In this document: positions 564 through 61,027 of the stretch, piece by piece
Layout of the letters: every line of letters starts with the position of its first letter
Position numbering within the stretch: position 1 is the stretch's first letter
NCBI GenBank assembly: GCA_943350445.1
Contig: CALRAE010000003.1
Location: forward strand, 1 to 61,172
Reading direction: 5' to 3'
DNA length: 61,172 nt
Source of the DNA: Candidatus Nomurabacteria bacterium
GTDB lineage: Bacteria > Patescibacteriota > Minisyncoccia > Phycocordibacterales > UBA9973
The notes under the pieces: generated by a model
What the model was told of the DNA's origin: nothing
Seen by the model: only the letters and a program-made list of their open reading frames with translations
Database searches by the model: none
Made by a program: the position numbers and the translations under genes

Positions 564-1745
564 TTAATTATACCACTTCCCCAGTTTAGTCAAAATTTCG
601 GACAAAGCTTTGACTGTGTAATCGATATCTTGCTTAGTTGTTTCTCTGCCTAGTGAAAATCTTAAAGAGCCATCCTCATCTTTTATATTTTTATTGATTG
701 CCTGTATGACATAAGACACTTTGCCATCGCCGGATTTGCAGGCGCTTTTGGCTGAGGCCATGATGCCTCGCGCCGAGAGCTCAATAACCAAAAGATCGCT
801 CGGAATATTCGGAATAGTAATATTCACATTATTCGGCAATCTATTTTTCAAATCGCCATTTAAATCTATTCTATAATTCGTTAGAATTGTAGAATTGGTT
901 AATTTAGAGACAAAATAGTCACGAAGCTTAGTCAGGCGTTTTGTTTCTTTTTCTTTAATTTTTTGCGCAGATTTTAACGCGTGAGTAAATTTCAAAATCT
1001 CAAACAAATTTTCCGTCCCCGGACGCAATCCCATTTCTTGGTCTCCCCCGCCGAATACTTTTGCGAGCGGTACGGAACTTTTTTTGTAAAGCACGCCGAC
1101 TCTGCCCGCGCCTTCAATTTTTGAACCGGAAAGCGTTAGCATGTCCACTCCTAGTCTAGCCACATTCAAATCCAGATAATTCGCGGCCTGAACTGCGTCG
1201 GTGTGAAATACGGGGAACCTCTCCCAAGAGGTGAGGTGTGTTTTTTTATAGCGCCTAATTATTTTTGCGATTTCTTTTATCGGCTGGATCGTGCCGATTT
1301 CGTTGTTGGCATAATGCACTGAAACTAATATCGTATTTTTGTTTATTTCTTTCTCTATTTTTTTAGGGTTCACAATTCCGCTTTCCTCAACCGGAACAAT
1401 GGAAATTTTCGCGAGCTTCCTTTGCTCAAGCATTTTGAAAGTTTCCAAAACAGACGGATGCTCTATGTTTGTAGTTATGATATGAGGCAAATTAAACCCC
1501 TCCCCACCCCCTCCCCTTAATAAGGGGAGGGCTCCCTGAATTGCCAAATTGTTACTCTCAGTACCTCCGCTTGTAAAAATTATCTCCTGTGGCTGAGCAT
1601 ACAGCAAATTAGCAACCCCGCTACGAGCATTTTCCAGTTTAGAGCGAGCTTCTACTCCCAAAGTATGTATAGAACTAGGATTGGCGTTCACGCTTGCGGC
1701 ATAATCTAAGTATAAATTATGGGACTTTTTGGTTGATTTAACCAT
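564..1745 (-). CDS. cysteine desulfurase / class-V aminotransferase (NifS/IscS-like), copy 1
   Basis: 393 aa. It has a PLP-lysine region (LSGSKIEGAGRVGVLY) and an active-site Cys region (SAKSACKSGDG). Paralog of 6527..7690. Confidence 0.85.
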   Translation of the reverse strand: MVKSTKKSHNLYLDYAASVNANPSSIHTLGVEARSKLENARSGVANLLYAQPQEIIFTSGGTESNNLAIQGALPLLRGGGGEGFNLPHIITTNIEHPSVLETFKMLEQRKLAKISIVPVEESGIVNPKKIEKEINKNTILVSVHYANNEIGTIQPIKEIAKIIRRYKKTHLTSWERFPVFHTDAVQAANYLDLNVARLGVDMLTLSGSKIEGAGRVGVLYKKSSVPLAKVFGGGDQEMGLRPGTENLFEILKFTHALKSAQKIKEKETKRLTKLRDYFVSKLTNSTILTNYRIDLNGDLKNRLPNNVNITIPNIPSDLLVIELSARGIMASAKSACKSGDGKVSYVIQAINKNIKDEDGSLRFSLGRETTKQDIDYTVKALSEILTKLGKWYN

Positions 1746-1769
1746 AAAAATAGTATATATTATCTATCT

Positions 1770-2225
1770 ATGAATACAAAGCTTCAGATTGCTTTTTTTG
1801 TTGTAACCGGAATCGCCCTAGCGATGATTGCTATTTGGGCTATAGTCACGGAAAGGCGCCTGAAAAGATTTTTCCTAGGCAAAAAAGCGAAAGATTTAGA
1901 AGATACTATTGTTAGTTTAGAAAATCACATTATTCAGCTGAAAAAATCAAAAGAGAATATTGAAAAAGAAATGGCCGTGATAAACGCAAAGCTGAAGAAA
2001 AGCGTCCGCGGAGTAGAGACGATACGCTTCAATCCTTTCCCCGACCAAGGCAGCAACCAAAGCTTCGCCATCGGCATGCTGAATGAAGAAGGCGACGGCG
2101 TGGTATTTTCGAGTTTATATTCCCGCGACCGAATGAGCGTATTTGCCAAGCCGGTGAAAAATCATAAATCAGAATACGAACTTTCCGCCGAAGAAAAAGA
2201 TGCTTTAAATAGAGCAAAAGTATAA
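1770..2225 (+). CDS. DUF4446-like single-pass membrane protein, copy 1
   Basis: 151 aa with an N-terminal TM helix, a coiled-coil segment and the block RFNPFPDQGSNQSFA...VVFSSLYSR. The family name comes from memory of that motif. Confidence 0.6.
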   Translation: MNTKLQIAFFVVTGIALAMIAIWAIVTERRLKRFFLGKKAKDLEDTIVSLENHIIQLKKSKENIEKEMAVINAKLKKSVRGVETIRFNPFPDQGSNQSFAIGMLNEEGDGVVFSSLYSRDRMSVFAKPVKNHKSEYELSAEEKDALNRAKV

Positions 2226-3739
2226 TGCAAGAAAATAAAAATAATAAAATAACTTCTCGTCCGCCAGTAGTCGTCGTCATGGGACACATCGACCATGGCA
2301 AATCTACGCTTCTCGACTACATTCGAAAGACAAATGTGACGGATACGGAAGCAGGAGGCATAACTCAAAATATTTCCGCATATGAAGTAGTGCATAAAGA
2401 CGAGCACGGCAAAGACCAAAAAATTACTTTCCTCGACACTCCGGGCCACGAAGCCTTTTCTAAAATGCGGGAGCGCGGAGCGGTAATTGCCGATATTGCT
2501 ATCCTGGTGGTTTCAGCCGAGGACGGTGTGAAACCCCAAACAATTGAGGCTTGGAAAACGATAGTCGAAGCCGGGCTGCCTTCTATCGTCGCCATAAACA
2601 AGATAGACAAGCCGGGCGCGAATGTCGAAAAAACCAAACAAGAGCTCGCGGAAAATGAAATTTATCTGGAAAACTACGGAGGCAAAATACCATGCGCGGA
2701 AATTTCCGCCAAGACAGGAGCCGGAGTAGATGGCCTCTTATCGCTCATTTTGATTCTATCGGAAATGGAAAATTTCACTACCAGCATTGAAGAAGACGCA
2801 ACCGGCTTCGTCATAGAAGCAAACTTAGATTCTAAGCGCGGAATACAAGCGGCTCTAATTGTTAAAAATGGAACTATCGGCAAAGGAATGTTTGTGGTGG
2901 TGGAAAATACCATTTGCTCCACACGCATGATCCAAAATTTCAAAGGAGAAATGATCGAGAGCGCTTCCCCTTCCGCGCCGATACGACTTTGCGGTTTTGA
3001 TAAAATGCCCAGAGTCGGCGCTCCGTTCAAATCTTTTAAAAAGAAAAAAGAGGCTGAGGAATACATAAAAAAATTACCCCCTCGCTCCGACCTAGGTCGG
3101 AGCACTCCCCCTTCTCAAGGGGGGGAGGGTAGCAAAAAGATTATACCTATCATGCTCAAAGCCGACGTTTCCGGCAGTCTTGAAGCTATCGAAAAAGAAA
3201 TTGCTAAAATAAAAAACGAAGGAGCGGAATTTAAAATTATAGCGAAAAGCGTGGGTCCTATTTCCGAATCTGATATAAAAAATATCTCTAACAGCGAAAA
3301 CGCCATAATTATCGGATTCAACGTCAAAGCCGACAAAAGCGCTAGCGAAGTCGCAGAGAAGCGAGGCATAACCATCTCTTTCTTCGATATCATTTACAAA
3401 ATGACCGAGTGGCTCACGGTAGAGATGGAAGCGAGAAGGCCGAGGATAGAGACGGTAGAGACGACGGGAAAGGCGAAAATCATCCGGGCTTTCAGCCGCA
3501 CCAAAGAACGCCAGATCGTCGGCGGAAAAGTAGTCGAGGGACGCATGCTCCTAAATGGCACAGTTAAAATTATGCGCCGGGAATTTGAAATCGGGCGCGG
3601 GAAAATCGTAAACTTAGAGCAAGGCAAGGTCAAGACAAGCGAAGTTGCCGAAGGCCTAGAGTTCGGCATGATGGTCGAATCGAAAATAGAAATAGCGCCG
3701 GGCGACATTATTGAACTATTTTCCATAGCGCAAAAATAG
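2225..3739 (+). CDS. infB: translation initiation factor IF-2, short form, copy 1
   Basis: GTPase motifs GHIDHGKST, DTPGHEAF and NKID, with the C-terminal IF-2 domains. Only 504 aa, so the long N-terminal region is absent. Confidence 0.9.
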   Translation: MQENKNNKITSRPPVVVVMGHIDHGKSTLLDYIRKTNVTDTEAGGITQNISAYEVVHKDEHGKDQKITFLDTPGHEAFSKMRERGAVIADIAILVVSAEDGVKPQTIEAWKTIVEAGLPSIVAINKIDKPGANVEKTKQELAENEIYLENYGGKIPCAEISAKTGAGVDGLLSLILILSEMENFTTSIEEDATGFVIEANLDSKRGIQAALIVKNGTIGKGMFVVVENTICSTRMIQNFKGEMIESASPSAPIRLCGFDKMPRVGAPFKSFKKKKEAEEYIKKLPPRSDLGRSTPPSQGGEGSKKIIPIMLKADVSGSLEAIEKEIAKIKNEGAEFKIIAKSVGPISESDIKNISNSENAIIIGFNVKADKSASEVAEKRGITISFFDIIYKMTEWLTVEMEARRPRIETVETTGKAKIIRAFSRTKERQIVGGKVVEGRMLLNGTVKIMRREFEIGRGKIVNLEQGKVKTSEVAEGLEFGMMVESKIEIAPGDIIELFSIAQK

Positions 3740-4092: not shown

Positions 4093-4164
4093 GGCCTGGT
4101 AGCCAAGTAGTAAGGCATTCCTCTGCAAAAGGAATATACGTGGGTGCGATTCCCACCCAGGCCT
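4093..4164 (+). tRNA. tRNA-Cys (GCA)
   Basis: Hand-folded cloverleaf: acceptor GGCCTGG/CCAGGCC, anticodon arm TTCCT-CTGCAAA-AGGAA, T arm GTGGG-TGCGATT-CCCAC. 72 nt, no encoded CCA. Confidence 0.9.
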
Positions 4165-4167
4165 CAT

Positions 4168-4492: not shown

Positions 4493-6043
4493 TTATTTTT
4501 GGGCTATTGAGAATAATTCAATGACGTCTCCGGATGCGACTTCGATTTTGGATTCGATCATCATGCCGAACTCCAGACCCTCCTCAACCACGCTGGTTTT
4601 CGCTTTGGCTTGTTCTAGGTTGACGATCTTCCCACGGCCGATCTCGAACTCTCGGCGCATTATTTTAACTGTACCGTTTAAGAGCATACGTCCTTCGGTC
4701 ACTTTACCACCTATGATCTGGCGTTCCTTTGTTCGACTAAAAGCTCGAATTATTTTTGCTTTACCTGTGGTCTCTACTGTCTCCACCCTAGGGCGCCTTT
4801 GCTCCATTTGTTCTTCTAGGAATTCAGTCATTTTATAAATAATATCAAAGAAAGAAATTGTGATCCCACGTTTTTCTGCCATTTCGATTGCACTCTTGTC
4901 TGCCTTCACATTGAACCCGATAATTATGGCAGCTTCACTGTTTGAAATATTTTTTATATCAGATTCAGAAATTGGACCTACGCCCTTACTGATGATTCTA
5001 AATTCTGCGTTATCGTTTGCTTTTCCATCAACCCCTTTACATTTTATTTTGGCGATTTCTTTTTCTATTGCTTCAATAGATCCAGAGACATCCGCTTTTA
5101 ATAATATTGGGATTATTTTCTTATCAGCTTTTTTTTCAGAAGTTTTTATATCGGATTTATTTTTTTCACCCTTTTGATTCTGCTCAATTTTCCAACTTTC
5201 CGCGTATTCCTGAGCACCCTTTTTGTTTTTGAAAGTCTTAAACATTGCTCCCACTTTTGGCAATTTATCAAAACCACATAGACGTATGGGTGTTGAAGGG
5301 GAGGCACTATCTACCGTTACTCCTTTAAAGTTTTGTATCATGCGTGTAGAGCAGATGCTGTCTTCGACAATTACAGTCATGCCTTTTGTGATTGTTCCAT
5401 TTTTTATGATAAGAGTGGCTTGTATTCCGCGTTTAGAATCAAGTTCTGCTTCGATGACAAAACCCGATGCATCTTCACCCGTATTTTCGGTGAAATTTTC
5501 CATTTCAGCTAAAATCAAAATTAATGATAACAGACTATCTACCCCAGTTCCTATTTTTGCAGAAATTTCTACGAAAGGGGTTTTGCCTCCATAATTTTCT
5601 AAATATATTTCATTCTCTGCAAGGGTTTGTTTTGTCTTTTCAATATTCGCGCCGGGCTTATCTATCTTGTTTATAGCAACAATTACTGGTAGCTTGGCTT
5701 CCACAATTGTTTTCCATGCCTCAACTGTCTGTGGCTTTACGCCATCTTCAGCAGAGACCACAAGAATAGCGATATCTGCAACGATTGCGCCACGTTCTCG
5801 CATTTTTGAGAAAGCTTCGTGCCCTGGGGTATCAAGGAAAGTTATTTTCTGATCTTCCCCTTTCTCATTTTTGTGAAGTACTTCATAAGCAGATATGCTT
5901 TGGGTGATACCACCAGCCTCACCATCAACTACGTTTGTTTTGCGGATATAGTCTAAAAGCGTAGACTTGCCATGGTCAATATGACCCATGACTACTACGA
6001 CTGGTGGACGAGGAGTGATTTTGTTTTCTTTGTTTTTTTGCAT
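4493..6043 (-). CDS. infB: translation initiation factor IF-2, short form, copy 2
   Basis: 516 aa with the same GTPase motifs as copy 1. It differs from copy 1 mainly by indels in the linker after domain II. Confidence 0.9.
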   Translation of the reverse strand: MQKNKENKITPRPPVVVVMGHIDHGKSTLLDYIRKTNVVDGEAGGITQSISAYEVLHKNEKGEDQKITFLDTPGHEAFSKMRERGAIVADIAILVVSAEDGVKPQTVEAWKTIVEAKLPVIVAINKIDKPGANIEKTKQTLAENEIYLENYGGKTPFVEISAKIGTGVDSLLSLILILAEMENFTENTGEDASGFVIEAELDSKRGIQATLIIKNGTITKGMTVIVEDSICSTRMIQNFKGVTVDSASPSTPIRLCGFDKLPKVGAMFKTFKNKKGAQEYAESWKIEQNQKGEKNKSDIKTSEKKADKKIIPILLKADVSGSIEAIEKEIAKIKCKGVDGKANDNAEFRIISKGVGPISESDIKNISNSEAAIIIGFNVKADKSAIEMAEKRGITISFFDIIYKMTEFLEEQMEQRRPRVETVETTGKAKIIRAFSRTKERQIIGGKVTEGRMLLNGTVKIMRREFEIGRGKIVNLEQAKAKTSVVEEGLEFGMMIESKIEVASGDVIELFSIAQK

Positions 6044-6502
6044 TTATTTTACTTCTGCTTTCTTTAATGCTTCTTTTTCTTCCGCACTCAATTCGTATTC
6101 TGATTTATTATTTTTAATGGGTTTTGCAAAGATACTCATGCGTTCACGAGAATATAGACTTGAGAATACCACTCCGTCACCATCTTCATTTAATATCCCA
6201 ACTGCAAAACTTTGGTTACTACCCTGATCAGGGAATGGGTTGAAGCGGATGGTCTCTAACCCACGGATACTTTTTTTCAACTTTGCATTTATAGTTGTGA
6301 TGTCTTTTTCGATATTATTCTTTGCTTTTTTGAGTTCAGTGATATTGTTTTCTAAAATAGTGATGGTGTCTTCTAGATCCTTCGCTTTTTTACCTAAAAA
6401 GAATCTTTTCAATCGTCTCTCTGTCACAATCATCCAAATAGCGCCCATGATTATGGCAATGCCTCCTAAAACAAAAAAAGCCAGTTCGAGCTTTGTATTC
6501 AT
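6044..6502 (-). CDS. DUF4446-like single-pass membrane protein, copy 2
   Basis: 152 aa, homologous along its full length to 1770..2225. Confidence 0.6.
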   Translation of the reverse strand: MNTKLELAFFVLGGIAIIMGAIWMIVTERRLKRFFLGKKAKDLEDTITILENNITELKKAKNNIEKDITTINAKLKKSIRGLETIRFNPFPDQGSNQSFAVGILNEDGDGVVFSSLYSRERMSIFAKPIKNNKSEYELSAEEKEALKKAEVK

Positions 6503-6526
6503 ACCGCTATAATATATACTATTTTT

Positions 6527-7690
6527 GTGGCTAAATCAAATAAAAGCTCAATAAATAAAGCACGGAAAATATACATGGATCATGCCTCCAGTGCTCTTTC
6601 TGCCTCTGCTAACCCTGGGTCTATTCATGAGTTGGGTGTAAAAGAGAAAAATACATTAGAAAGCGCTAGGGGTATAGTGGCAGATATTTTAAATGCTCAC
6701 AGTAAGGAAATTATTTTCACCTCTGGGGCAACAGAAAGCAACAATTTGGCTATTTTGGGTTTGATTAATGCGGTGAATCGTTTATTTTTACCGCACATTG
6801 TGACTACCAACATTGAACACTCATCAGTTTTAGAAGTTTGTAAACATTTAGAAAAAACAAAACAAGTGGAAGTGACTTATGTGTCGGTGGAGGGTAGTGG
6901 TATTGTCGATCCAGAAAAAATTAAAAAAGCTCTCAAGCCAAACACTGTCTTGGTTTCTGTAATGTATGCAAATAATGAAATAGGAACGGTGCAACCAATT
7001 CGGGAAATTGCAAAAGAAATTCGGCATCATAATAAAAATCTTGAAAGTAAGGTTTTTTTTCACACTGACGCAGTTCAAGCAGTAAACTATCTGCCGGTTA
7101 ATGTTGCCCAGCTGGGAGTGGATATGATGTCTATCAATAGCGCTAAAATATATGGTCCAAAAGGAGTAGGGGTTTTGTATGTAAAGAAAGGCACACTCAT
7201 TAGCCCTATTATGTTTGGCGGTGATCAAGAGTTTAGTCTAAGACCAGGCACAGAGAATGTGGCTTTAGCTATTGGTCTCGCAAAAGCTCTAGAGACTACT
7301 GAAAAAATGAAAGAAATTGAGGTGAAGCGATTAACAAAATTTCGGGATTATTTTTTTAAGAAATTATCTAAAATAAAAAATATTAAATTTACAATTAATG
7401 GTGATCTGGAAAAAAGGTTAGCAAATAATATAAACATAACTATTCCAAATATTCCGAGCGATCTTTTAGTCATTGAACTTTCAGCACGTGGGGTGATGGC
7501 ATCTGCGAAGAGTGCTTGCAAGGCAGGGGATGGTAAAGCTTCACATGTTATAGAAGCTATACACCCCAACGTAAAAGAAACTGATGGGTCTTTGAGGTTT
7601 TCTGTAGGAAGAGAAACCACAAAAGCTGATATTGACTATACTATTAAAGCTTTATCTCATATTTTATCCAAGCTAGAAAAGTGGTATTGA
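6527..7690 (+). CDS. cysteine desulfurase / class-V aminotransferase, copy 2 (GTG start)
   Basis: 387 aa with a PLP-Lys region (NSAKIYGPKGVGVLY) and SAKSACKAGDG. Paralog of 564..1745. Confidence 0.85.
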   Translation: MAKSNKSSINKARKIYMDHASSALSASANPGSIHELGVKEKNTLESARGIVADILNAHSKEIIFTSGATESNNLAILGLINAVNRLFLPHIVTTNIEHSSVLEVCKHLEKTKQVEVTYVSVEGSGIVDPEKIKKALKPNTVLVSVMYANNEIGTVQPIREIAKEIRHHNKNLESKVFFHTDAVQAVNYLPVNVAQLGVDMMSINSAKIYGPKGVGVLYVKKGTLISPIMFGGDQEFSLRPGTENVALAIGLAKALETTEKMKEIEVKRLTKFRDYFFKKLSKIKNIKFTINGDLEKRLANNINITIPNIPSDLLVIELSARGVMASAKSACKAGDGKASHVIEAIHPNVKETDGSLRFSVGRETTKADIDYTIKALSHILSKLEKWY

Positions 7691-18713: not shown

Positions 18714-19094
18714 ATGAAAAAACAGAACGAAAACAACGGAAATCTGGTGATGTGGATGGCGATCGCATTGGCGCTCGTGTGTCTCATCGGTAGCTCGGTG
18801 ATCATCAAACGCTATGGGTGGCCGCCAGGGAACAATATGACCAAGGAGTCGCCGGTGTTTACGCCGGTGGAGAAACTTTTCCTACCCGAGCCTGAGCCTT
18901 CGAGGAAGGACGGTTCAGCAGGGGATCTGGCGGCGAAGCCAGCCAGTTACAAGTTGGTAGTCGGGGCGAACCCGACGGTCAACCAGAAGCAGATATTCGC
19001 ACCTCCGACGAATTCGGTGGTGATCACGAATCAAGTGCAACTTGACCTGCTCACCAAGCAGGCCAAAGAGTCGCGCCAACAAGCAAAGAAGTAA
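18714..19094 (+). CDS. membrane-anchored protein, unknown function (GC-rich island)
   Basis: 126 aa with one TM helix (VMWMAIALALVCLIGSSVII) and a Pro/Glu-rich linker. Codon usage is GC-rich, unlike the neighbouring genes. Confidence 0.6.
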   Translation: MKKQNENNGNLVMWMAIALALVCLIGSSVIIKRYGWPPGNNMTKESPVFTPVEKLFLPEPEPSRKDGSAGDLAAKPASYKLVVGANPTVNQKQIFAPPTNSVVITNQVQLDLLTKQAKESRQQAKK

Positions 19095-19134: not shown

Positions 19135-20244
19135 ATGAAAACAAAAACGTTAATTGCCGCCATACTCATGGCGGCCGTCCTGTTCATAACGCAATTCAAC
19201 CTCAACGCTCAAACGTCCGTAACCCCACCAGTGGCGGTTCCGGAAACGTTGCCGATTGGTGACGCTGCAGATCTTCAGGCCTACGCCTGGGAGCAAGTGT
19301 CCCAGGTCGGCATCTACGGATGGGCTGCGTCATTAATTCGGTCCACGACAAATGCTCAGTCGGATCTGTGGGTTCAGTATTCACGTCCGAATGGTGTCGT
19401 TGATGTTGATGAAATACTCAACCTCATCAGGGGGCAACAGCTGCTTTTGAGCGTGCTGTATCCGAGTGACTCCCTGACTTTAGGGGTAAATCTCTGCGAT
19501 GCCGAAGGGAACAATTTGTTCTACGGCTACACACAGGGGGATATCAGTTCTCCAAGAAACGGAGTTTCGCGGAACACACTTTTTGTCGTTCTGGACATGA
19601 ACTCCGTTATCTCAATTCCGTTTGGGGCCGCTCAGAGGTTCCAGATTGTGGAGCGGGACGCAAACGGCAACCCCGTTCGTGTTTATCACTCCAGTGAGTG
19701 GGACGTTTACAACGGGAAGATTCGTTTCCCTGCGTATTTCGCGAACAAGTTGGGGGAGATGAGAGTCACCCTCAATGATGGCACAGAGGTAGCCTACAAC
19801 CTCTCTAGGGGAAAGAAAATCACTCCGACGGATGTCAAAGTCTTGATTGGCAACGTCTCCGCGCTTGGCACACGAACTTTCCGTGGCCCACTTGCAGTGG
19901 TCGTGGAAGTCAGTGAGGAGGAGTTCAAGAAGAACATCACTCCACTATCGCAGTTGGTAAATCCAGATGGGTTGATTCACTTCACTGCTTCAATAAACCG
20001 CTCGAACGTTTACGGCAATTATCCAGAATTTGCTTCGAGTGTGCATATCTGGCCACAAGGTCAGCCATCAAGCACGGCGCTGGTGATTCAAATCTCGCCT
20101 CTGGGGTATACCAAACTGTGGTTTCCTGGCAACGGCAGGTATTGGGTTAAGTTCAAGTTTCCGAGTGGTTGGCCCACCGAGAACCAATTCAGCCCGCCGT
20201 ATCGTTACGAGGAGCAGACCGTAACGGTCAGCGAGGGGAAGTAA
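19135..20244 (+). CDS. secreted protein, unknown function (GC-rich island)
   Basis: Start chosen at the internal ATG, giving MKTKTLIAAILMAAVLFITQFNLNAQ (signal peptide). 369 aa, no recognised domain. Confidence 0.6.
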   Translation: MKTKTLIAAILMAAVLFITQFNLNAQTSVTPPVAVPETLPIGDAADLQAYAWEQVSQVGIYGWAASLIRSTTNAQSDLWVQYSRPNGVVDVDEILNLIRGQQLLLSVLYPSDSLTLGVNLCDAEGNNLFYGYTQGDISSPRNGVSRNTLFVVLDMNSVISIPFGAAQRFQIVERDANGNPVRVYHSSEWDVYNGKIRFPAYFANKLGEMRVTLNDGTEVAYNLSRGKKITPTDVKVLIGNVSALGTRTFRGPLAVVVEVSEEEFKKNITPLSQLVNPDGLIHFTASINRSNVYGNYPEFASSVHIWPQGQPSSTALVIQISPLGYTKLWFPGNGRYWVKFKFPSGWPTENQFSPPYRYEEQTVTVSEGK

Positions 20245-21419: not shown

Positions 21420-21447
21420 GAATTAAGAGATGTGCTATAATGAACTT

Positions 21448-21573
21448 ATGGCAAAAAGAAATACAACACTTAGTCCTAAAAATAGGTCAAGACGTTCTCA
21501 TAAGACCAAGAAGCGACTTGCGATCAAGAATTTATTGCTTGCAAAGAAATCTCTTCAAGGAAAGTCTAAATAA
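21448..21573 (+). CDS. small, very basic protein (41 aa), leaderless geometry
   Basis: MAKRNTTLSPKNRSRRSHKTKKRLAIKNLLLAKKSLQGKSK. TGcTATAAT (21436-21441) lies 6 nt before the ATG. The ORF is below the track's size cutoff. Confidence 0.45.
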   Translation: MAKRNTTLSPKNRSRRSHKTKKRLAIKNLLLAKKSLQGKSK

Positions 21574-21630
21574 AGCATTTTAGGTTTTATTTATTTTTCA
21601 AAATCTTTTGAAATGTGCTATAATAGAGTC

Positions 21631-22305
21631 ATGGAAAACATAAAGAATTACAGTTTTTGGATTTTGGGTTTGGCATTATTTGTGTTTTCACTTGTTTTTT
21701 TCTTATCCGCACAGAATTTCTCTAAACAGGGATCATATGTAGAAGTAAAAGGGTTGTCTGAGAAGATTGTAAAGGCTGATGTGGCTATTTGGTCACTTAA
21801 CTTTGAGGTTAAATCAAACAATATTGATTGGCTTTATGCTGACATAGAAAAGAATCTTTTAACCATCAAGACATTTCTAAAAGAAAAAGGTTTTGAAGAA
21901 TCTGAAATAAATGTAGCCCCGGTAAATATATACCAAGACACATATCGAGATGCTCTTTTTAGATATAATGCGAATACTCAGCTCTCTGTCTATACTAAAA
22001 AAGTAGATATAGTACGTTCTGCATCTAAAGATACGTTACTTATAGTTAAAAAGGGAGTTACTTTAAACCAGAATTCTATTACATTTCAATTTTCTGATAT
22101 AAATAGTGTAAAGCCCGAGATGCTTGCAGAGGCTATCAAGAATGCGAAAATATCAGCAGAACAATTTGCCACCGAGTCTGGTTCTCGACTTGGGTCCATC
22201 TCTAGAGCTAATCAGGGGGTCTTTGATATTAGTGATAAAGATCCTGGCTCCCCAGAATTTAAAAAGATCCGTGTGGTTTCTAGTTTGAGGTTTCTTGTGA
22301 ACTAA
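21631..22305 (+). CDS. SIMPL/DUF541-like secreted or membrane-anchored protein
   Basis: Start moved to the ATG 6 nt after TGcTATAAT (21619-21624). It has an N-terminal TM or signal segment. The family assignment comes from overall resemblance and is weak. Confidence 0.5.
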
Positions 22306-23225: not shown

Positions 23226-23735
23226 ATGGAAAATACAAATAAACCAAAGAAATCAATGAAATTAGTCATGGTTAGTGGGGGGTTTGACCCAGTCCATATA
23301 GGCCATGTACGTATGTTTAAAGAGGCAAAAAAGCTAGGAAATGAGCTTGTTGTTGTTATTAATAATGACAATTGGAAGAGGCAGAAAAGGAAGTATGTTT
23401 TTATGCCTGATAATGAACGTAAAGAAATTATCGAAGCGTTTGCATGTGTGGACAGAGTGGTTATTACTGGGCATTCCAAAAATCCAAAAGGTTCAGAGGC
23501 CATGAGCGTAAGTAAAGAGTTGCACAAAATCAAACCGCACATCTTTGCTAATGGTGGAGATAGGAATAAGAAAGATTCTCAAAATCCTGAATCTTCTCTA
23601 TACTATGACATAAAAACATGTAAGAAATTGGGTATCGAAATGGTTTTTAATGTTGGACATGGCGGCAAAGTTCAGAGTTCTTCAGAACTTGTAGAAAAAA
23701 GTGTTTTAGCAAAAGTTAAACAAAAAAAAATATGA
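23226..23735 (+). CDS. cytidylyl/adenylyl-transferase family protein (HIGH-motif nucleotidyltransferase, RfaE-II/TagD-like)
   Basis: GGFDPVHIGHVRMF...LVVVINND. Confidence 0.7.
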   Translation: MENTNKPKKSMKLVMVSGGFDPVHIGHVRMFKEAKKLGNELVVVINNDNWKRQKRKYVFMPDNERKEIIEAFACVDRVVITGHSKNPKGSEAMSVSKELHKIKPHIFANGGDRNKKDSQNPESSLYYDIKTCKKLGIEMVFNVGHGGKVQSSSELVEKSVLAKVKQKKI

Positions 23736-24520
23736 AGCCATTAGACGAAATGTTAAAAAAAGATTTGAGCGGGATAAAAATGATAGTTTTTGACGTGGAT
23801 GGGGTGTTGGTGCCGAGGGGGACCAAAATAAAGCAGTCAGGTAGTATCACAACACTCGAGACTAAAATAATCGCTGATAAACAAATAGAGCAAATAAAAG
23901 AATTGAGCGAAAGAGGATTTTTGATAAATATTAGTTCCGGTAGGGGACTTTATATGCTACAAGAGATGTTTCGGGGGATTTTGCCTTTTGTAAGTTTGAC
24001 TTATGAAAACGGCAGCGCTACTTGGTATCAGGGTAAAATATATCAACATGTAAATAGTTTCAAATATCTAAAAAATGTTTTCCCTAAGCTAAAAGAAATA
24101 ACTAAAGAGAATAAAGATGTGAAAGGTTTTGAACCGAAAGAATTTATAATAACGATACATTGTCAAAAACAAGTAAAAGAGATTGAAGATATAGTAAAAA
24201 AGGAAAAAGGTTTGACCACTATATGGAATGGCGAGGCTTATGATATTCAGATAGATAAAGATCAGACCAAGGCTGTGGGCCTTCAGCATGTGATGGAGAT
24301 ATTTAAATTAAAGAAGAAAAATGTAATGGCAATAGGGGATAATTATAATGATGCTGAGATGTTGCAAGAAAGCGGTTTACCCATATCTGCTGATAAAGAT
24401 AGAGTAGGGGGTAAATTCTATGTGCCACTCGAGGGGGAGTTTCTTCCGGCAGATTTGCTTATGCAGAAAATTTTATTTCTGAAAAGAAATGTGGTACAAT
24501 TAAAATGTGACAGAATTTAA
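23732..24520 (+). CDS. HAD-superfamily phosphatase (Cof/IIB-like)
   Basis: Motif I is FDVDGVL and motif IV is GDNYNDAEM. 262 aa. Confidence 0.75.
   Translation: MKPLDEMLKKDLSGIKMIVFDVDGVLVPRGTKIKQSGSITTLETKIIADKQIEQIKELSERGFLINISSGRGLYMLQEMFRGILPFVSLTYENGSATWYQGKIYQHVNSFKYLKNVFPKLKEITKENKDVKGFEPKEFIITIHCQKQVKEIEDIVKKEKGLTTIWNGEAYDIQIDKDQTKAVGLQHVMEIFKLKKKNVMAIGDNYNDAEMLQESGLPISADKDRVGGKFYVPLEGEFLPADLLMQKILFLKRNVVQLKCDRI
24435..24469 (+). repeat. 35-bp perfect direct repeat, copy 1 (inside the HAD gene 3' end)
   Basis: gggagtttcttccggcagatttgcttatgcagaaa, identical to 28006-28040. Confidence 0.95.
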
Positions 24521-24857
24521 AATATTTCAAGAAAAACGTCCGTGGGGGAACTTTCGGCAGTTTACTCACAATACTCTCTGCACGATAAAAATTATTTTTG
24601 TAAAGAAAGACGAGGCTTTTAGCTTGCAATATCACAATAACCGAACTGAGTTTTGGAAAATTCTTTCAGGGACCCCAGAAATTACAATAGGGGAATCGAC
24701 TATAAGCGCGAAGAAAGGTGACGAATTTGAAATACTGCCCAAAACAAGGCATCGTATCCATTCTGCTGATACTGACACTGAAATTTTAGAAATCTCTTCT
24801 GGTGATTTCGATGAAAATGATATTATAAGAATAGAAGATAAATATGGCCGTACTTAA
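24507..24857 (+). CDS. cupin-domain protein (mannose-6-phosphate isomerase type II C-terminal-like), GTG start
   Basis: EKRPWGNFRQF... and a cupin core. TGgTACAAT (24495-24500) lies 6 nt before the GTG. Confidence 0.65.
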   Translation: MTEFKIFQEKRPWGNFRQFTHNTLCTIKIIFVKKDEAFSLQYHNNRTEFWKILSGTPEITIGESTISAKKGDEFEILPKTRHRIHSADTDTEILEISSGDFDENDIIRIEDKYGRT

Positions 24858-25965
24858 AAAGAAAATCGTCTCATCAGCGATCCGTCGAAAAGCCGAAAAA
24901 ATAAATAGGAAAGTAAAGAAAAAAGTCACAAAAAAAACTACTAGAAAAGTTACTGCTCTTGACCTGAAACGATCAAAGAAAAATCCGATTATCGAACCGA
25001 TTAGTCATAGACACTGGGCATCAAAAGCAACATTCAACCCGACTGCTCTTTTTCATAATGGGAAGGTTCACATTATCTATCGGGCCATTGGAGAAAGCGA
25101 TAATTCTGTTTTAGGTTATGCAATAAGCAATAACGGTTTTGCTGTATCAGACAGCTTTCCCACACCTGTTTATTTTCATTTCATGAGAAAAAATAAAGAT
25201 AGCTCTTTACCATCAATTTCATACAGCTCAGGTGGTGGCTGGGGTGGCGGGTGTGAGGATCCCAGATTGACACTTTTGGGCGATCAAGTGTATATGATAT
25301 ACACATCTTTTGATGGGTGGGGCTCTGTGCGAATGGCTTTGACATCTATCAATTTAGATGATTTCATATCTAGACGCTGGAATTGGAAAGAACCGGTATT
25401 AATTTCTCCGCCTGGGCAAATAAATAAAAATTGGGTGCTTTTTCCGGAGAAAATAAAAGGAAAGTATGCCATTCTTCACAGCATTTCTCCTAAAATAATG
25501 ATAGATTATTTTGATAGTCTAGATGAACTGGACGGAGATAATTATCTATACAGCGTTCATAAAGCAAGTCGTTTATGGGAATATAGAGATAAATTTATAC
25601 GCGGGGTCGGACCTTCTCCCTTAAAAACGAAATATGGCTGGCTAGTTTTGTATCATAAAATGGAGAAAGATGATTCTGATAGATATAAACTATGGACCAT
25701 GATCTTAGACGCGAAAGATCCAACTAAAATTTTATATAATTCAAATCAACCAATTTTAGAACCAGACGAATGGTATGAAAATGAGGGATATAAGGCAGGG
25801 GTAGTATATTCCTGCGGAGCGGTCATTAAGGATGGAAAGTTATTTGTATACTATGGTGGTGGTGATAAAGTTTCCTGTGTGGCCACAGCCAATTTGGATA
25901 AATTTTTACAAGAATTGATTCATCCCAACCTCTCCAAATTAGAAAGTAAAAAAATTAAAGCATAA
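24844..25965 (+). CDS. GH130/DUF377-family glycoside phosphorylase-like protein
   Basis: Blocks NPT..F..GK....YRA, CEDPRL and GW.VLYH. 373 aa, with a Lys-rich N-terminal tail. Confidence 0.7.
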   Translation: MAVLKKKIVSSAIRRKAEKINRKVKKKVTKKTTRKVTALDLKRSKKNPIIEPISHRHWASKATFNPTALFHNGKVHIIYRAIGESDNSVLGYAISNNGFAVSDSFPTPVYFHFMRKNKDSSLPSISYSSGGGWGGGCEDPRLTLLGDQVYMIYTSFDGWGSVRMALTSINLDDFISRRWNWKEPVLISPPGQINKNWVLFPEKIKGKYAILHSISPKIMIDYFDSLDELDGDNYLYSVHKASRLWEYRDKFIRGVGPSPLKTKYGWLVLYHKMEKDDSDRYKLWTMILDAKDPTKILYNSNQPILEPDEWYENEGYKAGVVYSCGAVIKDGKLFVYYGGGDKVSCVATANLDKFLQELIHPNLSKLESKKIKA

Positions 25966-25968
25966 TTT

Positions 25969-27900
25969 ATGTTTGTTGTAAAAAGATCTCATCACAATCC
26001 AATTCTTGTCCCAGATAAAGACCATTACTGGGAAGCCTTCGCCACTTTTAATATGAGTGTTATTAAAAAAAGCCTTAGATTTTTTGGTGTTTATCGCGCT
26101 ATTTCTGCAGTAGATAGACTCCGAACACCACAACAATTTTCAATTATAGGTATTGGGAAAAGTAAAGATGGTACATATTTTGAAGAACGTGTACCGTTTG
26201 TTATACCCGTGGAAGAATGGGAGAAATATGGCTGTGAAGATCCGCGCATCACTTATTTTGAAGGGCTATATTATATATTTTATACAGCCCTTTCTAAGTA
26301 TCCATTTGAAGCGAGTGGAATCAAAGTGGCAGTCGCTGTTTCCAAAGATTTAAAAAAAATAAAAGAGAGGCATTTAGTGACACCCTTTAATGCCAAAGCC
26401 ATGACTCTTTTCCCAGAGCGTATCGGGGGCAAAATCACCGTGATTCTCTCGGTCAATACTGATATGCCTCCTGTAAAAACTGCCATAGCCCAAGTGGATA
26501 AAATAGAAGAATTATGGAATCCAAAATTTTGGGAAGGGTGGTATCAAGATATTGACAAACATGTTATTGATTTTAAAAGATCTCCTTATGACCATATTGA
26601 AGTCGGTGCTCCACCTATTAAAACTTCTCATGGCTGGCTCTTTATATATTCACATATTCAAAATTATTTTTCTTCCCCTGAAAATTTAAATCGCATATTC
26701 GGAATTGAGGCGGTAATTTTGGATTTTGATAATCCGCTTAAAATTCTTGGGCGTACAGGTGGCCCACTACTGGCTCCTCGTGAATCATACGAACTTTTAG
26801 GCCATGTTCCCGATGTCATCTTTCCAGCGGGAGCAATTATAAAGAAAGATACACTTTTTATATATTATGGAGCAGCTGATATGACCACTTGCGTCGCTCA
26901 TGTAAACTTGCAAGACCTTATGGGAACCATGCGTCCCGAGACAAGTTCACATTGGCATTTCAAACGATCCTTACAGAATCCGATCATTACACCTAATAAA
27001 AAACACCCATGGGAGGCGAAAGCGACTTTCAATCCAGCTGTCTTGCGGATACGAAATATAACACACATATTATATCGAACCCTTTCCGATGATAATACTT
27101 CTTATATTGGATATGCCAGTAGTCGTGATGGTGTTAATATTGACGAGCGGTTGTTAGAACCTATCTATAGTCCAAGGGAGGATTTTGAATCAAAAAAAAT
27201 TGCTGGAGGAAATTCAGGCTGTGAAGATCCGCGTCTTACTAAAATAGGGAAAATTATTTATATGTGCTACACAGCCTTTAACGGCATTGGTCCGCCGCGA
27301 GTGGCTATTACTTCTATTACAGAGAAAAACTTTTTACAAAAGAATTGGCAATGGAAAAAACCTATTTTAATCACTCCAGCTGGTTTTGATGACAAAGATA
27401 CCTGTATTTTCCCTAAAAAAATCAAAGGTCAGTACTTTATTTTGCATCGTGTCGGCGACGAAATATGCGGAGATTATTTAAAATCGCTTAATTTTGAAAA
27501 GGAAACTGTCACTAAGTGCATTAGAATTATAGGGCCCAGAATAAATAGTTGGGATAGCTCCAAAGTTGGCATCTCGGCGCCACCGATAAAAACAAAAAAT
27601 GGCTGGCTACTTCTTTACCATGGGGTTTCCAAGAGTCATAATACCTATCGTATTGGAGCAATTCTACTTGATTTAAATGACCCGGCCATAGTGCTTGCGC
27701 GTACCACTGACCCCATATTTGCACCGCAAGAATTATACGAAAAAGTCGGGGTAGTTAATAATGTTGTTTTTCCGTGCGGTATGGCCCTCAAAGATCGTTT
27801 TCTCTATATATATTATGGCGCGGCTGATACCGTAGTTGGAGTGGCAACCATAGAATTAGATATTGTCTTAAAAGCTCTGACCAGGGATATTAAGAAATAA
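25969..27900 (+). CDS. tandem double GH130/DUF377-domain protein
   Basis: The same block set appears twice (CEDPRITY...HGWLFIY, then CEDPRLTK...NGWLLLYHG). 643 aa. Confidence 0.7.
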   Translation: MFVVKRSHHNPILVPDKDHYWEAFATFNMSVIKKSLRFFGVYRAISAVDRLRTPQQFSIIGIGKSKDGTYFEERVPFVIPVEEWEKYGCEDPRITYFEGLYYIFYTALSKYPFEASGIKVAVAVSKDLKKIKERHLVTPFNAKAMTLFPERIGGKITVILSVNTDMPPVKTAIAQVDKIEELWNPKFWEGWYQDIDKHVIDFKRSPYDHIEVGAPPIKTSHGWLFIYSHIQNYFSSPENLNRIFGIEAVILDFDNPLKILGRTGGPLLAPRESYELLGHVPDVIFPAGAIIKKDTLFIYYGAADMTTCVAHVNLQDLMGTMRPETSSHWHFKRSLQNPIITPNKKHPWEAKATFNPAVLRIRNITHILYRTLSDDNTSYIGYASSRDGVNIDERLLEPIYSPREDFESKKIAGGNSGCEDPRLTKIGKIIYMCYTAFNGIGPPRVAITSITEKNFLQKNWQWKKPILITPAGFDDKDTCIFPKKIKGQYFILHRVGDEICGDYLKSLNFEKETVTKCIRIIGPRINSWDSSKVGISAPPIKTKNGWLLLYHGVSKSHNTYRIGAILLDLNDPAIVLARTTDPIFAPQELYEKVGVVNNVVFPCGMALKDRFLYIYYGAADTVVGVATIELDIVLKALTRDIKK

Positions 27901-28005
27901 AATAATATAATTAAATGTGTGGATTCAAAACCACAAGAAAGTGTTGGAGTTAATGGGTTGAAGATTTTAAAGGATCTACTTTTTCTGGTCTCAGTATATG
28001 AATCA

Positions 28006-28040
28006 GGGAGTTTCTTCCGGCAGATTTGCTTATGCAGAAA
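28006..28040 (+). repeat. 35-bp perfect direct repeat, copy 2 (relic HAD C-terminus)
   Basis: Identical to 24435-24469. In the HAD frame it reads GEFLPADLLMQKVL followed by a stop. Confidence 0.95.
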
Positions 28041-28200
28041 GTTTTGTAATTAAGTTAAATTATTTTTTAGGAGGAAGTAGGTTATCAAGTTCTTCCATTG
28101 TCTCTGGTATCCACGCAGCAAGTAGTCGATTGACAACAATTGTTCCTGTGAAAGCCATGCGGGTTTTATTACCTGACTTTGTCGTCTCGCTTTTATATGC

Positions 28201-28413
28201 CTAAAAGTCAGCTTTTGTAACTAAGCCTCTAGTATAGTTTTTTATTTTATACCAAATCTCAGCACCTGTTTCAGTTAGTTCGGCAAGATTCATTACAGTT
28301 TCAGTAGGAATGTTACCCTTTGCAACTATAAGTTCAACCATCTCTTTACGGAAGGCTTCCATATCTATTTGACCTTCTTTTTTATTTTGGGGTGGTGTGT
28401 CCATTTGTGACAT
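28201..28413 (-). CDS. hypothetical small protein (70 aa)
   Basis: Start moved to ATG 28413 (MSQMDTPPQNKK...), which lies 6 nt after a CATACT -10-like hexamer. Confidence 0.45.
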   Translation of the reverse strand: MSQMDTPPQNKKEGQIDMEAFRKEMVELIVAKGNIPTETVMNLAELTETGAEIWYKIKNYTRGLVTKADF

Positions 28414-28442
28414 CAGTCTAGTATGTATGCTATAATGTATAT

Positions 28443-28841
28443 ATGCAAATAAATCTAGTAGCAAAAAATGTAGAGTTAACAGAAGACATTAAAAACTATG
28501 TCTCAAAGAGAGTTACTAATCTAGAAAAGTTACTGACAAGAATCGAGGAGGCTGGTGGGAAAGTGATGGCTAATTTTGAAGTTAGTAAATCTACAAATCA
28601 CCATAAAGCTGGCGAGGTTTTTCATGCAGACTGTTTGATTAAAATAGATGGAAAAGAATTTTATGGGAGTGCTGATAAAGAAGACTTTTATGCAGCAGTA
28701 GATGACGTCAAAGACAGCCTATACTATGAAATAAACAAAAATAAAGACCGCACACAGACTCTATTCAAAAGAGGGGCTGCAAGTATTAAGAAAATGATGA
28801 AAGGCCTATCAAAGAAGAATCCTTTTACTTCAAAATATTAG
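28443..28841 (+). CDS. hpf: ribosome hibernation factor (HPF/RaiA family)
   Basis: The N-terminus is MQINLVAKNVELTEDIKNYVSKRV. 132 aa. Confidence 0.75.
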   Translation: MQINLVAKNVELTEDIKNYVSKRVTNLEKLLTRIEEAGGKVMANFEVSKSTNHHKAGEVFHADCLIKIDGKEFYGSADKEDFYAAVDDVKDSLYYEINKNKDRTQTLFKRGAASIKKMMKGLSKKNPFTSKY

Positions 28842-59197: not shown

Positions 59198-59272
59198 GTC
59201 CTCGTAGTTAAATGGATATAACGACTCCGTCCTAAGGAGTAATTGTAGGTTCGATTCCCGCCGAGGACACCA
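59198..59272 (+). tRNA. tRNA-Arg (CCU), CCA encoded
   Basis: GTCCTCG...ACTCC-GTCCTAA-GGAGT...GTAGG-TTCGATT-CCCGC-CGAGGAC-A-CCA. There is one A:C mismatch in the T stem. Confidence 0.8.
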
Positions 59273-60818
59273 AAACAGAACTCAACGGCTTTTTCAAAGC
59301 CAGAAGGTGGGACGCGCGAAGCGCGTCCCACTGATTTCCCCCCATTTTTCCAAACGAATTCAGAATTTTTGGCGTGCTGGCGCGCACCTGTTTTTCGCCA
59401 AGGAGGAGGTTCGAGCCAAAGATTTCTTTGGCACAGACCTTTTTGGCAAAAAGGTCTGAATCAGAAGCAATTTTGTCTATATTCTGTGCGACTTCTAGCC
59501 AGTTTTGGAAAGGTTCGAGCCAATCATTCTGCTTGTGTGAAAGATTGTAGATTTCTTCCTCGAGCGACTTCTTTTGTAAAAGCAATTTTCCTTTTTCAGC
59601 ACGATAATCTTCCTTATCAATATCTTGGTCTAAATATCCATTAAGAAGTCGCTCCAGTCTAATTGAAATTGAAGAAATCTTCTCTTGTTTCTCTTTCACA
59701 CAAGCAGTCAAAGACTGGGCGGATTTTCCGTGGTCTTGCAAAGCAAGACGATTGAGTTCCACCGCCCAGTCTTTTGGCAAAGAAACTTTTTTGATTAAGG
59801 ATGATAACTGGCTATCTAGTATTTCTTGGCGAATACAAGGTTCTTTACATTTCACATTTTTATTTTTCTTCGTGCAGTGATAATACACATACTCGTGAGT
59901 ATTACCATTCTTTTGTTTCTTAACCTTGTATTCGCCAGTTATCATCATTCCGCATGAGGCGCAGGAAATGAGGCCACAGAAAGGTTGTGGGTCGTTTAGG
60001 GGCTTTCTATCTGGCTTACCGCGAAGTTTCAACATTTCCTGCGCCTGATCAAAAAGTTTCTTTGAAATGATTGGCTCGTACTTTCCTTCGTGGAGTTCAC
60101 CACCATATCGGAATAGTCCAGTGTAGAAAGGATTTGAGAGAATTGAAGTCGCACGGGATTTGTGGATTTTCTTTCCGGTTTTTGAAAATAGATTGTGCTT
60201 CGCCAAAAAGTTTGAGACATCTTCCAGTCTATTCCCACCTTTTACATAAAACTCAAACGCTTGCTTAATAATTTTTGCTTTCTTTCTATCAACGACAACA
60301 GTTTTTGTTCGCGAGTCGTTGATGTAGCCGACAGGAGCAAGCGTTGGATAATCTCCATTTCTCACTTTTTGGCGAAGTCCTCTTTTGGTGTTTTCGGAAA
60401 GAGAATCCACATAATATTTGCTTTGCCCGAAAGCCATATTCAACATAAATTTCCCTTGCGAAGTGCTATCGCACCAGAAAGTGGGAAATTTGAGGCTCGC
60501 AAGTTTCCCTGTGTCGAGGAGGTAAATTATCTTCCCACCATCAATACTATTTCTTGCGAGACGATCTGGATGCCAAGAGAGAATAGAATCTGCATCGCCC
60601 TTTTCGATACATTTTATCATTTCGTTAAAAATCGGTCTGCCAGGAATTTTCGCAGATTGCTTTTCGACAAATTCAAGGGCGATATTCAGATTTTCTCTCT
60701 TGGCATAGTCTCGCAATTCTTGGAGCTGTGCCTCAATCGAAAGAACCTGCTTGTCCTCGACATCAGTGGACTTGCGAGCATACAAAAAGAATTTTTTATT
60801 TTCCATATTATTGTTCAT
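59232..60818 (-). CDS. large serine recombinase
   Basis: N-terminal resolvase domain (FFLYARKSTDVEDKQ...SIEAQ, ...HPDRLAR), recombinase domain, Cys-rich zinc ribbon (CASCG...YYHC...C..PC) and a coiled coil. Start taken at ATG 60818. The last ~60 codons lie in the left IR and antisense to tRNA-Arg. Confidence 0.85.
   Translation of the reverse strand: MNNNMENKKFFLYARKSTDVEDKQVLSIEAQLQELRDYAKRENLNIALEFVEKQSAKIPGRPIFNEMIKCIEKGDADSILSWHPDRLARNSIDGGKIIYLLDTGKLASLKFPTFWCDSTSQGKFMLNMAFGQSKYYVDSLSENTKRGLRQKVRNGDYPTLAPVGYINDSRTKTVVVDRKKAKIIKQAFEFYVKGGNRLEDVSNFLAKHNLFSKTGKKIHKSRATSILSNPFYTGLFRYGGELHEGKYEPIISKKLFDQAQEMLKLRGKPDRKPLNDPQPFCGLISCASCGMMITGEYKVKKQKNGNTHEYVYYHCTKKNKNVKCKEPCIRQEILDSQLSSLIKKVSLPKDWAVELNRLALQDHGKSAQSLTACVKEKQEKISSISIRLERLLNGYLDQDIDKEDYRAEKGKLLLQKKSLEEEIYNLSHKQNDWLEPFQNWLEVAQNIDKIASDSDLFAKKVCAKEIFGSNLLLGEKQVRASTPKILNSFGKMGGNQWDALRASHLLALKKPLSSVLVSSAGIEPTITP
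59267..59414. repeat. 148-bp inverted repeat, left copy (starts inside the tRNA-Arg 3' end)
   Basis: It matches the reverse complement of 60880..61027 except for a 3-nt patch (cacctgttttt vs cactgattttt). It contains the hairpin gggacgcgc-gaa-gcgcgtccc. Confidence 0.9.
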
Positions 60819-60879
60819 AGTAATAAAAATTCTTTTTGTATTTCGGGCAAAGCAAATGTAGTCAAAATTGCTTCTGATT

Positions 60880-61027
60880 TCGAACCTCCTCCTTGGCGAA
60901 AAATCAGTGCGCGCCAGCACGCCAAAAATTCTGAATTCGTTTGGAAAAATGGGGGGAAATCAGTGGGACGCGCTTCGCGCGTCCCACCTTCTGGCTTTGA
61001 AAAAGCCGTTGAGTTCTGTTTTGGTGT
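60880..61027. repeat. 148-bp inverted repeat, right copy
   Basis: See 59267..59414. Confidence 0.9.

Follow-up and report, generated by a model that had tools for sequence, protein, structure and literature searches.

Non-homologous DNA can be gained during natural transformation by homology-facilitated illegitimate recombination, a rare and scar-leaving process that combines a one-sided homologous anchor with an illegitimate joint; passages of two papers cite it for Acinetobacter, S. pneumoniae and P. stutzeri, and invoke it for similar architectures with displaced 3′ ends in type VI secretion system (T6SS) and Rhs loci (PMC5361080; PMC3240628). A further model deals with displaced, or "orphan", immunity genes and 3′ gene ends in Rhs, contact-dependent inhibition (CDI) and T6SS effector arrays, where an incoming module recombines in the conserved part of the upstream gene and brings a new 3′ end together with downstream genes, while the old 3′ end is shifted downstream and persists as an orphan (PMC5361080). 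Campbell-type integration, a single crossover that takes up a circular DNA with a short piece of chromosomal homology, places the insert between direct repeats of the homology segment, of which one completes a functional gene and the other is left as a truncated relic; no element-encoded recombinase is required, and the event can be reversed by recombination between the repeats. In integrative islands, direct repeats (attL/attR) lie at the 3′ end of a gene, which is kept intact by the sequence of the insert. Here we describe a locus that is like each of these systems in the respects just named. It lies in a 61,172-nucleotide (nt) stretch of contig CALRAE010000003.1 (hereafter the window) of Candidatus Nomurabacteria bacterium, a Nomurabacteria/Paceibacteria-type member of Patescibacteria, where a cassette made of a cupin gene, a GH130 gene and a double-GH130 gene stands between the two copies of a 35-nt perfect direct repeat. 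The first copy lies inside the 3′ end of a gene for a HAD hydrolase, and the second is a genuine relic of a HAD 3′ end. The explanation that we favour, with somewhat better than even confidence, is that a cassette-bearing and a cassette-less haplotype have recombined at this locus, the cassette being re-inserted by a single crossover in a short block of identity. The features on which the argument draws are the following (lengths of proteins in amino acids, aa).

23226-23735, + strand: cytidylyltransferase-like gene (CTPt; Pfam PF01467), first gene of the conserved operon, overlapping the HAD start by 4 nt
23732-24520, + strand: HAD-IIB (Cof-type) hydrolase gene, 262 aa (Pfam PF08282)
24435-24469, + strand: repeat copy 1, perfect over 35 nt and 40/42 to 24476; encodes GEFLPADLLMQK of the intact HAD gene
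24470-24520, + strand: HAD tail, ILFLKRNVV at 24470-24496, then the extension QLKCDRI
24492-24500, + strand: TGGTACAAT, an extended −10-like box belonging to the cupin/GH130 operon; relatives show TGnTATAAT or GTATAAT in this position
24507-24857, + strand: cupin gene, mannose-6-phosphate isomerase C-terminal type (Pfam PF01050/PF07883), with its GTG start 6 nt after the −10 box
24844-25965, + strand: GH130 gene (GH130a), 373 aa (Pfam PF04041)
25969-27900, + strand: double-GH130 gene (GH130bc), 643 aa, with two GH130 domains (Pfam PF04041, two stretches)
27901-28005, + strand: 105-nt spacer, containing TATAAT at 27906-27911
28006-28058, + strand: relic HAD 3′ end, made of repeat copy 2 (28006-28040) and the degenerate tail GTT TTG TAA TTA AGT TAA (V L * L S *)
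28060-28413, − strand: small convergent gene of 117 codons, containing an in-frame TAG (28201-28203) and ending 1 nt from the relic
28443-28841, + strand: ribosome hibernation factor (S30AE, HPF) gene (Pfam PF02482), by the relatives' synteny the conserved right neighbour of the variable slot

The 35-nt repeat, GGGAGTTTCTTCCGGCAGATTTGCTTATGCAGAAA, occurs exactly twice in the 61-kb window, both times on the + strand, at 24435-24469 and 28006-28040. The copies match at 40 of 42 nt when extended, so that the repeat of the preliminary description (42 nt with two mismatches) is borne out by exact search and extension alike. None of 100 dinucleotide-preserving shuffles gave any match to GGGAGTTTCTTCCGGCAGATTTGCTTATGCAGAAA, even with up to three mismatches allowed, and a repeat scan of the whole window found it to be the only exact repeat of such type longer than about 25 nt. 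For comparison with relatives we used 46 species-level loci encoding the orthologous HAD, plus several metagenomic contigs (numbered with the prefix L). The 42-nt repeat query matches the HAD 3′ ends of 17 related loci, and in relatives it matches HAD 3′ ends only; the second copy was not found in any of 50 related loci, and no relative carries both copies. A dispersed repeat family (REP/MITE-like) is ruled out by the presence of just two copies in 61 kb and by the confinement of the relatives' matches to HAD 3′ ends.

The copies resemble each other more closely than do the genes of different species. Over the homologous 42-nt segment of 37 HAD genes (666 species pairs), identity averages 31/42 and peaks at 38/42, and no exact run is longer than 23 nt. 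Because none of the 666 pairs goes beyond these last two limits, the 35/35 identity of copy 1 and copy 2 is not ordinary conservation. It is followed by an abrupt fall to 9/18 in the tail, which is the ordinary between-species level. The right edge of the identity block, a perfect block ending abruptly in homologous diverged sequence, looks like a crossover boundary. Two readings of the perfect identity remain: donor and recipient may have been identical there, recombination having used the block as usable identity, or the two copies may have been homogenised during the event. A neutral relic that has stayed unchanged over 35 nt also implies that the event is recent in comparison with the splits between the sampled species.

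On the left side, copy 1 lies within the HAD open reading frame (ORF; 23732-24520), as had been proposed, and runs directly into a continuation of the donor type. The 262-aa protein is made up of a body (residues 1-246), a native tail of 9 codons and a read-through extension of 7 codons; homologous HAD proteins have 249-255 aa, and many of them end in ...LMQKILSLKRSVV or ...ILLLKRSRV. The stretch downstream of copy 1, from the tail ILFLKRNVV through the −10 box to the cupin start, is collinear with its counterparts in L010, L017, L020, L028, L034 and L085, where a tail of the form ...LK[RK]S.V is followed by a stop inside GTATAAT and a cupin start M.EFK.F. Protein alignment and comparison of the DNA 3′ ends both make ILFLKRNVV orthologous to the ...LKRSVV* tails of cassette-bearing relatives, and the possibility that the current HAD tail is foreign is thereby ruled out. 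In the same six relatives the final Val and stop codons, GTA-TAA, form part of GTATAAT, which is the −10 box of the cupin promoter. The window instead reads AAT GTG GTA CAA TTA (...NVV, then TACAAT), with CAA at 24497-24499 replacing the relatives' TAA stop. This T-to-C change (TATAAT>TACAAT) removes the HAD stop, and seven further codons (QLKCDRI) are read before the ORF closes at the TAA of 24518-24520, within the cupin gene, which accounts for an annotation oddity, the 7-codon HAD extension overlapping its neighbour. The gene had been said to continue beyond the repeat for 17 different codons; nine of these (ILFLKRNVV) are native to cassette-linked HAD, and only the seven of QLKCDRI are new. 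Both the extended −10 at 24492-24500 and the GTG start at 24507 are present as first described. TGGTACAAT is the candidate promoter of the cupin/GH130 operon, and the start that follows it (GTG ACA GAA TTT AAA, M-T-E-F-K) is collinear with MAEFKPF of L020 and L034. The layout "TGnTATAAT + 6-11 nt + start codon" also precedes other genes of the window and the cupin genes of relatives. A TG-n-TATAAT with a start codon 6-8 nt later recurs at 21433-21457, 21616-21640, 24486-24520 and 28428-28452, which suggests that many genes of the window may have leaderless or near-leaderless mRNAs.

On the right side, copy 2 read in the HAD frame gives GEFLPADLLMQKVL followed by TAA, in agreement with the preliminary description. 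The tail of the relic fits the family pattern [IV]-L-x-L-[SK]. Its first TAA falls on the third tail residue, a variable position for which relatives have GAA, TCA or TTA, all a single substitution from TAA; the original reading was probably VL-x-LS*. The suggestion that copy 2 preserves a plausible original C-terminus was thus right in that copy 2 is a real HAD relic, and probably wrong in taking "VL-stop" for the original end.

Beyond the relic lies the small convergent gene, which is 50% identical to a 118-aa gene of L083 (E=8e-34, tblastn) and shows weaker kinship with the adjoining 159-aa gene of L083. Among about 55 loci (L001-L048, L083-L088) it is found only in the window's species and in L083, and no further relatives were found by a word-indexed protein search or in JGI metagenomes. 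In L083, which has no cassette, the homologue of the small gene is convergent with an intact HAD gene, the two overlapping by 8 nt at the HAD 3′ end, and is followed by HPF, whose promoter region (a very similar divergent region) is also shared with the window. By this gene order L083 is the empty site: an intact HAD gene directly adjoins the homologue of the small gene that follows copy 2, as the preliminary description had proposed to look for in relatives, in a different species, however. The in-frame TAG of the small gene (28201-28203) is present in all assemblies, and gene callers give only the 70-aa N-terminal part, so that the gene may be either a pseudogene or a read-through gene.

The stretches outside the repeats also share their affinity. 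In a tree built by neighbour joining from 58 HAD bodies (residues 1-246), the window's HAD is sister to those of the cassette-less P0002 (L003) and P0004 (L083), with a bootstrap of 77%, and its HPF is nearest to those of L083 (88%) and L003 (87%). Inside the repeats, the cupin is nearest to that of L020 (72%; against L084 it scores 52% by tblastn and 55% by pairwise alignment), and the GH130 genes are nearest to those of L084 (84-87%) and L008. The outer segments that touch the repeats are therefore L083-like, and contiguous in L083, whereas the inner segment is not L083-like, which makes one insertion into an L083-type locus the simplest reading.

A duplication of purely intragenomic origin would involve one haplotype only. 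The genome's own 42-54-nt HAD 3′ end would have been copied ectopically downstream, by templated repair, by slippage or by a duplication with later deletion, and the 35/35 identity is indeed simplest if both copies come from one genome. We nevertheless consider this improbable. Copy 2 runs into a different HAD-like tail (x-L-x-L-S-stop) and not into the resident tail, identity dropping abruptly at that point; the copy sits where the HAD 3′ end of L083 lies relative to the shared small gene, which would have to be a coincidence; and L083 already has an intact HAD gene at the position of the relic beside the small gene.

In the junction of two haplotypes that we favour, one partner would have been of the common clade state, HAD-cupin-GH130-double GH130 with a HAD tail that overlaps the cupin promoter, and the other of the L083 type, with the HAD 3′ end abutting the small convergent gene and then the hibernation-factor gene. 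A 3.57-kb piece of the cassette-bearing haplotype, starting inside the conserved GEFLPADLLMQK-coding block of HAD and stopping 105 nt past the double-GH130 gene, would have recombined into the cassette-less chromosome, and the 105-nt spacer would have arrived with the cassette side. We infer a single crossover: a circularised fragment may have integrated in the Campbell manner, or an equivalent event may have relied on one-sided homology. By it the HAD gene would have gained the donor tail and the promoter-linked operon, and the resident last ~54 nt of HAD would have been displaced downstream and kept as a dead relic. Host homologous recombination on the 35-42-nt identity block, possibly of RecA type, would suffice, with no need of a recombinase of the element's own. 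The direction of the event was probably gain, although this is not proven.

The locus departs from the described systems as well as resembling them. As in Campbell-type integration, both flanking repeats are homologous to the target gene (its HAD 3′ coding block), but the insert here has no replicon or marker, the visible homology is only 35-42 nt and the circle would have to be supposed. Classical cases of homology-facilitated illegitimate recombination mostly delete recipient DNA at the illegitimate joint; here 35-54 nt are duplicated. Unlike in Rhs, CDI and T6SS arrays, the module is a metabolic (mannoside) operon, the orphan is a dead 54-nt fragment rather than an expressible toxin tip or immunity gene, and one round only is visible, with no array.

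Several observations weigh against the favoured explanation. L083, which alone combines the empty site with the small gene, is not of the same species (84% aa identity in HAD). A search of JGI metagenomes with a degenerate pattern for the four junction combinations gave no empty-site or circle junction of the same species, and the 248-aa (empty-site) HAD allele was not found in the 90% protein cluster. No donor of the cassette was found among the more than 5000 homologues of GH130bc, the best match anywhere being 87%, and no homologue of the 105-nt spacer was detected. The relic tail does not single out a class of HAD ends: L083 (VLELST), L085, L034, L012, L008 and L027 all match it at 12/18 nt, several classes thus being tied, and an assignment to the ELS class of L003 and L083 fails. 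The window's fmt and CTPt belong to other allele classes than those of L003 and L083, so the backbone is not simply L083-like. L084, the nearest relative of the GH130 genes, is also among the closest relatives by HAD, which allows for a vertically inherited cassette. Finally, a block of 35-42 nt is near the lower limit for efficient RecA-type recombination.

The same affinities bear on the reverse direction, in which the cassette would be resident and an L083-type fragment (the last ~54 nt of HAD, the small gene and HPF) would have been imported. Its right part would have entered by homologous recombination at HPF, and its left end would have been joined illegitimately to the cassette side, 105 nt past the double-GH130 gene, in a homology-facilitated illegitimate recombination with its anchor on the right. 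The nearness of both GH130a and GH130bc to L084, a close HAD relative too, fits vertical descent of the cassette. Next to HPF on its right, fmt is of the allele class found in cassette-bearing relatives and not of that found in L003 and L083, and a right-hand crossover between HPF and fmt is therefore plausible; the small gene, moreover, is otherwise confined to L083. However, the imported relic would have to match the resident HAD at 35/35 positions in a mechanism that gains nothing from such identity, the L003/L083-like HAD body would need a second exchange, and the illegitimate joint would have fallen inside the HAD homology by chance. We regard this direction as unlikely, while taking it seriously.

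More generally, the clade is strongly mosaic: in genomes that are otherwise similar, the deep allele classes of CTPt, fmt and cupin are discordant with one another and with the similarity of hisS and HAD. For CTPt there are two such classes, with 76-87% identity within and 53-66% between them, and in L097 a non-orthologous PMM-like HAD gene occupies the HAD slot. These observations indicate that gene-sized recombination is frequent in the clade.

The cassette itself is common among relatives. About 30 loci have the order cytidylyltransferase-HAD-cupin-GH130-double GH130, usually followed sooner or later by HPF-fmt-def-hisS-lepB, and CTPt lies upstream of HAD in most relatives. The cassette is absent from L003, L040 and L083. 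What lies in the slot between HAD and HPF varies: HPF follows HAD directly in L040, a convergent gene with a receiver domain is found in L003 and two small convergent genes in L083, and some other loci have extra genes after the GH130 genes. Going by this distribution, the cassette is an ancestral and widely conserved operon partner of HAD in the clade rather than an exotic insert. The locus would then be at most a re-acquisition or a recombination of haplotypes, and not the arrival of a novel mobile cassette, because the cassette is an ancestral neighbour of HAD. The first suggestion, a footprint of cassette insertion or of recombination-mediated gain, is broadly right as regards the recombination junction at the HAD 3′ end; the cassette is not an unusual one, its order being common to about 30 species, and the direction is as qualified above.

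These findings also bear on whether the 3.57-kb segment is a mobile element, be it an island moved by an integrase and bounded by attL/attR or a transposon that left a long target-site duplication. Direct repeats at a gene 3′ end are found in many integrative islands, and the presence of the segment varies among relatives. Pfam searches, however, found only the cupin and GH130 genes between the repeats, with no integrase or transposase, and the immediate flanks are HAD and HPF; no terminal inverted repeats were found at the segment ends (24470/28005); and the nearest recombinase gene, the only one found, lies 31 kb off and encodes a serine recombinase (59232-60920). The same order with HAD is conserved as an operon across about 30 species, and the insert begins in frame at the orthologous position of the HAD tail, which argues for homology rather than target-site duplication. 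Unlike an integrative island, the segment has no integrase in or beside it and is the ancestral operon partner of its target gene, not an accessory island. We set a mobile element aside as very improbable. The GC content between the repeats equals that of the flanks; the GC skew is below that of the upstream genes, which we do not consider diagnostic.

That a cupin, a GH130 and a double-GH130 gene lie between the copies, as first reported, was confirmed with Pfam. The best solved relatives of GH130a are beta-1,2-oligomannan and beta-1,2-mannobiose phosphorylases (PDB 9fj8 at 3.8e-47 and 7fip at 1.2e-39). In L097 the HAD slot is filled by a PMM-type HAD, and L085 has ManC upstream. The probable function of the operon is the salvage of beta-1,2-mannosides by the GH130 phosphorylases, together with the cupin mannose-6-phosphate isomerase and the HAD/PMM-like enzyme, and the predicted route would plausibly lead from beta-mannosides via mannose-1-phosphate to central or nucleotide-sugar metabolism. 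In the spacer that follows the double-GH130 gene, the TATAAT at 27906-27911 has a GTG 7 nt later, at 27919, in frame with the HAD relic; a leaderless chimeric ORF of 44 codons, ending in GEFLPADLLMQKVL, is possible in this region (27906-28049), though putative only. We also considered the spacer as a decayed 5′ end of HPF, since GH130bc is directly followed by HPF in L007, L031 and L094, and rejected this: the best uncorrected p was 0.03 among 17 tests, which is not significant.

The repeat structure is not an assembly chimera. Two co-occurring strains joined at a shared 35-mer would have been a concern, as the data are metagenomic and an assembly at k=31 breaks at the repeat: Logan contig L093 corresponds to window positions 24440-28035 and has both ends inside the repeat copies, because a de Bruijn graph must break at a 35-nt repeat. 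Contigs of three ENA samples assembled at k=141 and a contig of an NCBI metagenome-assembled genome (MAG; CALRHJ010000001.1) are, however, 99.97-100% identical to the window, and the same HAD, HPF and GH130 proteins are encoded on the ENA, NCBI MAG and Logan contigs. The long contigs L001, L089 and L092 span both repeat copies with unique sequence on each side, L091 spans copy 2 and L002 spans copy 1. Since k=141 contigs of different samples cross each junction, with unique sequence on both sides, since a repeat of 35-42 nt cannot bridge k=141 and since the MAG contig has the same structure at 99.98% identity, an artefact of this kind is barely credible. Over about 12-14 kb the MAG contig (L089/L092) shows one mismatch and one gap against the window, and on it the cytidylyltransferase and HAD (the equivalent of window 23226-24520) are called as a single 421-aa fusion protein.

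Other parts of the window have features of their own. A three-gene block (class-V aminotransferase, DUF4446 and an IF-2-like GTPase of 504/516 aa) is present in mirror-image duplication at 564-3739 and 4493-7690, with about 75% nucleotide identity and centred on a tRNA-Cys (4093-4165), so that two infB-like paralogues flank the tRNA gene. Between 18500 and 20250 the GC content is 0.50-0.53, compared with about 0.35 in the rest of the window, and the ORFs at 18714-19094 and 19135-20244 had no Pfam match; this region may be foreign DNA. The large serine recombinase mentioned above (59232-60920, − strand; Resolvase, Recombinase and Zn-ribbon) adjoins a tRNA-Arg(CCT). A 148-nt inverted repeat, whose arms at 59267-59414 and 60880-61027 are 98% complementary, brackets it. 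The region 59198-61027 may represent either an invertible segment or the border of an integrated element.

Genomes of the Candidate Phyla Radiation are small, uncultured and poor in classical mobile elements, and operon exchange among them has mostly been inferred from phylogenetic discordance. The scar described here shows one exchange at base-pair resolution, with a duplicated gene end, an empty site in a relative and a donor-type tail fused to a promoter, and it flags the slot between HAD and HPF as a hotspot of variation in gene content. A more far-reaching proposal is that the conserved GEFLPADLLMQK-coding block is a recurrent docking site, free of any recombinase, for the gain, loss and swap of whole downstream operons in Nomurabacteria, and that the haplotype of the window is a reversible intermediate, whose 35-nt repeats would let the 3.57-kb operon leave as a circle and re-enter related genomes. 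We hold the two parts of this proposal together to be improbable; if true, they would amount to a "cassette" system driven by host recombination in bacteria with few mobile elements. On the evidence as it stands, the locus is a well-documented case of a known type of event in a poorly studied phylum, with no new mechanism and no new kind of element, and it suggests that plain homologous recombination on very short blocks of identity can move a complete sugar-salvage operon.

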